DNA of 6,746 nucleotides. Source: a virus (Duplodnaviria; Heunggongvirae; Uroviricota; Caudoviricetes). The notes below the pieces were generated by a model. That model worked only from the letters and a program-made list of their open reading frames with translations. It made no database searches and had not been told where the DNA came from. Position 1 is the stretch's first letter; each line of letters opens with the position of its first letter. The translations under genes and the position numbers were made by a program. The stretch is from IMG/VR virus record IMGVR_UViG_2663763286_000009, positions 1 to 6,746 of that record; one strand, written 5' to 3'. Below are positions 3,961 through 4,191 of this stretch, piece by piece.

Positions 3961-4191
3961 TTATTTAAACTTCCACCCGCTGCCTTTGAGGGTGTTCCGG
4001 AGCATGTCATTGACTTGTTTCTGAACTACATTTTTTCCTTGCTTAATAACATCGTCCTTAGTGATTTCTCGACCACATTCGGCACAACTAACGCCAACGA
4101 AATTAGTGTCAAAGTCAAAATCATCGGGCCGCTTGAGCATCTCACTGCCGCAATCAGGGCAGGCAACCTTCAAGGTCTGATTTTCGAGCAT
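3961..4191 (-). CDS. Small C4 zinc-ribbon protein (76 aa), function unknown
   Basis: Two CxxC pairs (CPDC and CAEC, 21 residues apart). ATG 4191 with GGAAGGA 7 nt upstream and an in-frame stop at 4222-4224. No ATA/AGA/AGG codons. The fully overlapping plus-strand ORF (3880-4230) is Leu/Ile/Phe-rich with rare codons, consistent with an antisense shadow. Confidence 0.55.
   Translation of the reverse strand: MLENQTLKVACPDCGSEMLKRPDDFDFDTNFVGVSCAECGREITKDDVIKQGKNVVQKQVNDMLRNTLKGSGWKFK

Follow-up and report, generated by a model that had tools for sequence, protein, structure and literature searches.

A zinc-ribbon gene behind a predicted sieB-type promoter, and its probable antisense partner, in the early-left region of a Rac-like prophage

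The DNA analysed here, 6,746 nucleotides of a virus of the Caudoviricetes (the window; positions 1 to 6,746 of IMG/VR record IMGVR_UViG_2663763286_000009), comes from a Rac-like prophage, of which it covers the immunity and early-left region; insertion sequence (IS) elements interrupt it at either end. At the position that sieB occupies in Escherichia coli K-12 Rac, it carries a minus-strand gene for a 76-residue protein with a predicted C4 zinc ribbon, designated ZnR (3961..4191), which is attached to a predicted promoter of the sieB type. A plus-strand open reading frame (ORF) of 116 codons, designated AsP (3880..4230), contains the whole of ZnR in antisense orientation, and the conservation of both frames makes it likely that both strands of the overlap code. 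Taken together, the best explanation is an accessory cassette in which ZnR would be an exclusion or defence factor expressed in the lysogen, with AsP on the opposite strand and a switch on induction. We hold this explanation as a whole with moderate confidence only.

ZnR is a real gene, far beyond a chance ORF, because of its family score, its RefSeq annotation, its four invariant cysteines and its low ratio of nonsynonymous to synonymous substitution (dN/dS). The protein, MLENQTLKVACPDCGSEMLKRPDDFDFDTNFVGVSCAECGREITKDDVIKQGKNVVQKQVNDMLRNTLKGSGWKFK, scored 81.6 bits (E 2.8e-23, model positions 2–60 of 60) against NCBIfam NF047912, the "ECs_2282 family putative zinc-binding protein", for which the curated cut-off is 37 bits. 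In E. coli R1, where the identical gene lies between racR and kilR, RefSeq calls it on the ZnR strand under this family name, and it does so for the identical gene of FDAARGOS_1287 as well. ZnR is therefore not a discovery of a new gene but an annotated member of a named family without studied function, on which our literature search found no paper dealing with function, structure or expression; the headline of the first-pass annotation of this DNA, a small C4 zinc-ribbon gene in the gap between the repressor gene and kilR, is a modest one in this light. The features that it had described are present: the 76-codon minus-strand ORF, two CxxC pairs (C11/C14 and C36/C39, with 21 residues separating C14 from C36) and a Shine-Dalgarno sequence, GGAAGGA (4205..4199, minus strand), 7 nt before the ATG. 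An alignment of homologues retains an AAGGA-like block at the Shine-Dalgarno position.

Close homologues of ZnR (n = 23) come from Escherichia, Cronobacter, Hafnia, Klebsiella, Citrobacter, Yersinia and Atlantibacter, and a profile search of 1.8 billion representatives recovered 106 relatives, nearly all 47–109 residues long. Conservation of the ORF and its cysteines in relatives had been named beforehand as a test of the gene, and none of the outcomes listed there as refuting it was encountered. Among 69 aligned relatives of 23–83% identity, the four cysteines are the sole invariant columns and occur in 69 of 69. Pairwise dN/dS for ZnR is 0.08–0.10, and substitutions concentrate on its third codon positions (e.g., [17,5,32]), with a high synonymous divergence (pS, the proportion of synonymous differences, 0.63–0.8).

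The proposal that ZnR sits in a sieB slot was borne out by comparison with K-12. The distance from the repressor gene (3157–3618) to kilR (4632–4853), given earlier as about 1 kb, is 1013 bp, and a SieB-sized ORF is indeed absent from this gap, in which the longest ORFs have 116 (plus strand) and 76 (minus strand) codons. When the gap was aligned to K-12 Rac and searched by BLAST against K-12 and other E. coli, flanks of 94–98% identity were found to enclose a variable, exchangeable cassette of 371 bp (3868..4238). The order in K-12 Rac is racR, ydaG, ydaF, sieB on the opposite strand, kilS and kilR; ydaG-ydaF-sieB thus takes the position of the cassette, with sieB oriented like ZnR. The ETEC1716 cassette consists of ydaG-ydaF only. 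Among 5426 complete E. coli genomes, 2 carry the allele of the window and 15 others a divergent one. The sieB genes of lambda and P22 lie directly after N/24 and are convergent with PL, the early leftward promoter. The same place, directly after N or the repressor gene and with an orientation opposed to the neighbouring genes, is taken by the ZnR homologues of Klebsiella, Hafnia, HK639, Edno5 and, more distantly, the prophages L107 and L108. The sieB genes of lambda, P22 and K-12 Rac thus share with ZnR the early-left slot and the orientation against PL, whereas SieB itself, with 162–192 residues and hydrophobic segments, is unrelated in sequence to the 76-residue, hydrophilic and predicted metal-binding ZnR.

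The region upstream of ZnR also matches that of sieB. In P22, both the sieB promoter and the start of its RNA are annotated features (BK000583). We aligned by eye the upstream regions of sieB from P22, lambda and K-12 with those of ZnR from the window, HK639, Hafnia, Edno5, L107 and L108, and the annotated P22 promoter and RNA start fall on window positions 4208–4260. The predicted −10 hexamer of this Psie-type promoter, TAATCT (4224..4229, minus strand), aligns with P22 TAAACT, and TAnnnT is invariant at the −10 column of the nine aligned loci. By the same alignment, the ZnR RNA is predicted to start at about 4217–4219. A proximal box, CCCCCAACAG (4208..4217, minus strand), is matched in the alignment by the 5' end of the sieB mRNA of P22 (A+1 CCCCTACAG); the form CCCC(A/T)ACAG or TTCCACAGTCAA, beginning at the P22 RNA start, is common to the aligned loci. 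A distal copy, CCCCAACAG (4242..4250, minus strand), lies over the −35 position, 34 nt upstream of the proximal one. The box reads CCCCAACAG in the window, CCCCTACAG before sieB and TTCCACAGTCAA in Hafnia and Edno5, and its two copies covary between lineages as a direct repeat of 9–12 nt, about 34 nt apart, which is also found in lambda (L007 1424–1480) and P22 (L014 4695–4738). We place ZnR behind a predicted sieB-type promoter because the −10 hexamer, the box and the position of the RNA start are shared. A sigma-E-like promoter for the window copy was considered and rejected, as its motif is not conserved in homologues. The homology with the P22 sieB promoter supports the earlier proposal that ZnR is expressed in the lysogen, and from the known behaviour of P22 sieB we infer that ZnR would be made there while the repressor holds PL off.

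A second element flanks this promoter on the fixed side of the cassette junction. At 4261..4297 (plus strand), two interleaved helices, ACCACC-GAA-GCCCGG-A-GGTGGT-GAAATAAAA-CCGGGC, form a pseudoknot-like arrangement of H-type topology, and the same element flanks the module at the sieB loci of lambda, P22 and Rac. Both helices are kept, with compensatory changes, in 21 distinct sequences, which come from lambda, P22, K-12 Rac, HK639, SfV, LLS and from Hafnia, Klebsiella and Edwardsiella prophages. The helices were parsed by a custom script because the MAFFT alignment was not structure-consistent. In a shuffle test of pairing, the observed value was reached by 0–4 of 200 shuffles in 20 of the 21 sequences and by 11 of 200 in the remaining one (L021). 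The loop lengths are canonical on the PL-direction strand only, and Rfam gave no match for the element. A short version of the promoter has a single box and a better −10 hexamer (TATACT, TATGCT or TATCCT), and there the pseudoknot-like element occupies the spacer between −35 and −10, so that a role at the DNA level is possible.

The promoter and its flanking element accompany more than one gene. The short version precedes ZnR in Klebsiella and other cargo in SfV, in 118970_sal3 and in E. coli strains, and lambda's copy of the module was found by blastn in 142 phage records. In the same slot of other E. coli strains, and on the ZnR strand, the pseudoknot-plus-promoter module is followed by a gene for a 77-residue helical protein (L095 2037–2270, minus strand) or for a 59-residue protein (L096 2427–2606, minus strand). 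It also precedes an unannotated ORF of SfV (L098, from about 1272 onward, plus strand) and a gene of Salmonella phage 118970_sal3 (L103, from about 1271 onward, plus strand), the annotated start of which lies upstream of the promoter. None of these four other small cargo genes has a match in PADLOC.

ZnR had also been described as opposed by a transcript from a promoter at 3775–3803, which would silence it on induction. The antisense geometry is borne out by the sequence, and we treat the timing and the silencing as inferred. The promoter scan recovers 3775–3803 (TTGACT-17-TAATAT) and a better plus-strand promoter at 3734–3763 (TTTACA-18-TATAAT, 11 of 12), so that two tandem sigma-70-like promoters (3734..3803, plus strand) precede the cassette. 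Copies of an operator-like motif, CTAATATT, lie at 3709 and 3797, and a further cluster of them is found in the intergenic region between the repressor gene and cro. As C(T/A)AATATT(A/T)G, it is found at 3077–3135, 3708–3717 and 3796–3805, the last copy covering the −10 of the 3775–3803 promoter, and ten matches at ≤1 mismatch were counted against 4.7 expected. The 3734–3803 stretch travels with the repressor type, not with the cassette. Since the operator-like motifs are shared with the cro side and the stretch tracks the repressor type, we take 3734–3803 as the predicted equivalent of PL and its operator OL, a candidate for repressor control. Downstream of the repressor gene, a perfect 13-bp hairpin flanked by A8 and T8 (3646..3677) looks like a bidirectional terminator, which would also stop transcripts running in the ZnR direction.

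ZnR had been called the only convincing coding signal in the gap. This is wrong, since the plus-strand ORF at 3880–4230 also shows signs of coding. AsP matches phrog_29546 and is preceded by a Shine-Dalgarno sequence, GAGGT (3870..3874, plus strand); a GAGG/GGGT-type block and an ATG precede the ORF in every homologue of the alignment inspected. The overlap is codon-aligned, each AsP codon within it being the reverse complement of a ZnR codon. A dN/dS of 0.7–1.1 within the overlap had at first led us to regard AsP as a shadow frame. The frame is open, however, in 16 of 16 lineages for which DNA was available, including ZnR relatives of 26–46% identity in other contexts, and from leucine and serine codon usage the chance of an open frame is 0.02–0.53 per lineage. 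The first 24–25 codons of AsP lie outside ZnR; this segment is of fixed length, carries the motif h-x-[ILF]-D-[AT]-[ST]-E-x-x-x-Q, and accumulates substitutions mostly at its own third positions ([7,5,15], [10,6,15] and [4,4,13]). Family scans found no recognisable domain in AsP, and a profile search of PDB sequences returned nothing. The idea that its N-terminus is a remnant of YdaG or YdaF was rejected, the sequences being unrelated.

Inside the overlap, the signal for AsP comes only through the codons that ZnR uses, and purifying selection is clear for ZnR and, outside the overlap, for AsP. ZnR Pro22 is CCC in 7 of 8 cases (background 0.14), Arg41 is CGA or AGA in 7 of 10 (0.25), Leu64 is CTC in 5 of 8 (0.13), and Ser16 is always AGY. 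At ZnR residues shared by the members of a distant pair, the codon was shared as well in a fraction of 0.485, compared with 0.394 ± 0.019 under a codon-choice null, and the similarity of the antisense residues was 2.59, compared with 2.06 ± 0.11; neither value was reached in any of 500 resamplings, although the null ignores shared ancestry, which tells against too strong a reading of both figures. AsP appears to shape synonymous codon choice in ZnR, and it is probably the first gene of the PL-type transcript.

Existing annotations are in conflict over the locus, with phage GenBank records calling the PL-direction ORF, RefSeq PGAP calling ZnR, and none of those examined carrying both. Coding sequences in the PL direction are annotated on the minus strand of the records concerned (HK639, L008 3959–4306; Edno5, L009 3980–4351; L010 3504–3971; L011 3471–3758; L012 3504–3812), including HK639_45, gp50 of Edno5 and the calls in Klebsiella phages 2b, KP12 and ST974-OXA48phi18.2. 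One could follow these records, together with the match to phrog_29546, and regard the plus-strand ORF as the only gene and the zinc-ribbon ORF as its shadow. We consider this highly improbable. The plus strand would then have to fix RCA codons without reason to yield cysteines invariant in 69 sequences, and substitutions peak at the third positions of ZnR, which moreover has its own Shine-Dalgarno sequence and sieB-type promoter, exceeds the NCBIfam cut-off and has relatives that lack an antisense ORF. The converse, in which ZnR is a lone accessory gene and the plus-strand frame a shadow kept open because ZnR rarely uses TTA, CTA and TCA, deserves more weight, and several observations that count against two-strand coding speak for it. 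The plus frame evolves in the overlap at the dN/dS given above, far from the 0.08–0.10 of ZnR; the high pS of ZnR implies that any constraint imposed on it by AsP there is modest; PGAP annotates ZnR alone in E. coli; and AsP is without a known domain. A codon-aligned antisense frame, furthermore, automatically turns hydrophilic ZnR codons into hydrophobic ones and so acquires a protein-like look. A 93-residue relative of ZnR has no open antisense frame, from which we conclude that ZnR is an independent family and that the ZnR-AsP pair is specific to one clade. Nevertheless, we regard the shadow-frame explanation as rather unlikely, because the 24 N-terminal AsP codons outside ZnR keep their length, motif and third-position periodicity, the frame is uninterrupted in 16 of 16 lineages, even where ZnR identity falls to 26%, saturated lineages retain the rare codons of ZnR, and a Shine-Dalgarno sequence and ATG precede the plus-strand ORF in the aligned homologues. 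Coding on both strands is therefore the reading that we retain as likely.

As to the ZnR protein, AlphaFold models a zinc ribbon at residues 8–44, with a predicted local distance difference test score (pLDDT) of 68–78, followed by a long C-terminal helix at residues 45–71; the mean pLDDT was 65–67 over two runs with alignments of 21 and 69 sequences. A Foldseek search of the model against PDB returned nothing below E 0.7. Pfam scans gave zinc-ribbon families only, all below threshold, and the PHROGs scan gave families of unknown function only. The Lar/RalR zinc ribbons (TIGR03655; phrog_6422 and phrog_599) are likewise small C4 prophage proteins of Rac-like and lambdoid phages. ZnR is not a member of the Lar family, scoring 16.8 bits against TIGR03655, for which the cut-off is 39.6, and its relatives match the two PHROGs weakly (phrog_6422 by 6 of 69 and phrog_599 by 2 of 69).

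There are some weak hints of a defence role. A weak match to the PADLOC candidate PDC-M14A was obtained for 41 of the 69 relatives (lowest E, 1.7e-8). The distant 93-residue relative has as neighbours an MmeI-type restriction-modification enzyme and a gene for pyrimidine-dimer excision. We treat these matches and this neighbourhood as hints, not as evidence. The stop of the 93-residue relative is overlapped by the start of a 157-codon gene, and the two (L104 3221–3975) may form a separate two-gene unit in a defence-island-like context; to regard them as a PADLOC M14 system was rejected, since the neighbour matches nothing. None of the PADLOC partner models matches AsP or this 157-residue protein.

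The explanation that we favour can be set out as follows. The 371-bp cassette would be an accessory unit, or "moron", which occupies the sieB position of a Rac-like prophage. From its minus strand, a promoter homologous to the sieB promoters of P22 and lambda would give rise to ZnR, a soluble C4 zinc-ribbon protein of small size. As long as lysogeny lasts, PL would be shut by the repressor and ZnR would be made from the sieB-type promoter; by binding a target of the phage or of the host, it would act in superinfection exclusion or defence. Read on the plus strand, the same codons would yield AsP, whose frame would come first on the early transcript of PL type. On induction, PL transcription would run head-on through the ZnR promoter and gene, lowering ZnR synthesis by promoter occlusion and antisense RNA while AsP is produced. 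More tentatively, AsP may be the lytic-phase counterpart of ZnR, with a self-immunity function like that of Esc for SieB. Ranade and Poteete (1993) reportedly attributed the self-immunity of P22 to Esc, an in-frame product of sieB, and to the sas antisense RNA, whereas the candidate counterpart of ZnR is a protein of the opposite strand.

A measured precedent for the arrangement is offered by the Mu-like Pseudomonas phage Fc02, in which a lysogen-expressed exclusion gene of 7.9 kDa lies beside the repressor gene and is overlapped in antisense by an early gene of the lytic operon (PMC9936078). Its olg1/gene 10 pair resembles ZnR/AsP in combining a small gene beside the repressor gene with an opposite-strand early gene of the lytic operon, and differs in that the exclusion activity of both genes was measured there (PMC9936078), that of ZnR being a prediction. 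A further difference is that the overlap of ZnR/AsP is complete, codon-aligned and conserved across many lineages.

An exclusion function is our best guess for ZnR by analogy of position with sieB, and the fact that the proposal derives from position is itself one of several points that weigh against the favoured explanation. The −10 (TAATCT) and −35 of the window promoter are weak by consensus and are absent from the promoter-scan list. A profile search of PDB sequences with ZnR returned generic zinc ribbons only. BLASTP against K-12 SieB gave no alignment at E ≤ 100, and the SieB family was not seen in Pfam or NCBIfam scans. ZnR is hydrophilic and without a membrane segment, with a maximum 19-residue Kyte-Doolittle mean of 0.34, compared with 2.19 for K-12 SieB and 1.73 for lambda SieB; because it lacks both SieB similarity and such a segment, its mechanism of exclusion, if any, must differ from that of SieB. 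The match of ZnR itself to PDC-M14A is a weak one (27.3 bits, E 1e-6, profile positions 18–89, or 72 of 152), and PDC-M14 is a multi-gene candidate without a published test.

ZnR may be real and lysogen-expressed and yet do something else. It could, for example, bind RNA polymerase or nucleic acid, or control the adjacent kilS/kilR module, and in this way adjust the maintenance of the prophage or the physiology of the host; or it could be one half of an addiction pair, with AsP as the other. Nucleic acids and polymerase are common binding partners of small zinc ribbons, and the weak generic matches of ZnR include subunit P of RNA polymerase and ribosomal zinc ribbons; moreover, ZnR adjoins the FtsZ inhibitor gene kilR and a DicF-like small RNA, and the cargo of accessory slots does not always consist of defence genes. 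We nevertheless find a role of this kind doubtful, given that the slot and promoter belong to a known exclusion gene, that relatives of ZnR are also met in unrelated phage contexts from which kilR is missing, and that no DNA-binding family exceeded its threshold in the Pfam and NCBIfam scans. Within the exclusion or defence explanation, the most elaborate version is a matched pair, in which ZnR would be the exclusion factor and AsP a self-immunity protein made only when PL fires, both written into about 230 bp, inseparable by recombination, and with a conservation that extends from E. coli to phages of Edwardsiella and perhaps to GC-rich bacteria. This version is speculative, and we think it improbable in its full form.

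The remaining genes of the window fit its assignment to a Rac-like prophage. On the minus strand lie ydaV-like (755–1495), ydaU-like (1502–2290), ydaT (2368–2790) and ydaS/cro (2774–3055), and on the plus strand the helix-turn-helix repressor gene (3157–3618), kilR (4632–4853) and, beyond ydaE, a gene for a conserved hypothetical protein of 91 residues (5098–5373); a truncated recE follows. Upstream of kilR, about 4360–4468 (plus strand) is the counterpart of the K-12 small RNA KilS (b4833) and ends in a hairpin and a T-run. Rfam gave sub-threshold matches to DicF at 4397–4451 (37.6 bits, gathering threshold 48) and to STnc100 at 4440–4639 (37.7 bits, gathering threshold 47). Positions 1–119 are the C-terminal end of a probable IS transposase ORF; at the other end, a probable IS end at about 6625–6746 interrupts the recE-like gene, and the ORF at 5475–6671 consists of an Exonuc_VIII N-terminal domain followed by foreign sequence. 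An IMG/VR contig (L016) matches 964–5482 at 99.98%. No complete E. coli genome reaches 80% coverage of the gap region.

Two results of this analysis merit follow-up: coding on both strands, which is probable, and the sieB promoter module, which is portable and is accompanied by a conserved pseudoknot-like element. The overlapping pair in the cassette may be of deep conservation; such pairs are rare and disputed in bacteria, and ZnR/AsP provides a test case that is short, lies in a well-understood regulatory setting and can be mutated on one strand without altering the protein of the other. The promoter region of sieB in lambda and P22 is, in turn, portable and accompanies several small cargo genes that are unrelated to one another, so that it can serve as a simple guide to accessory genes expressed in lysogens of lambdoid phages.

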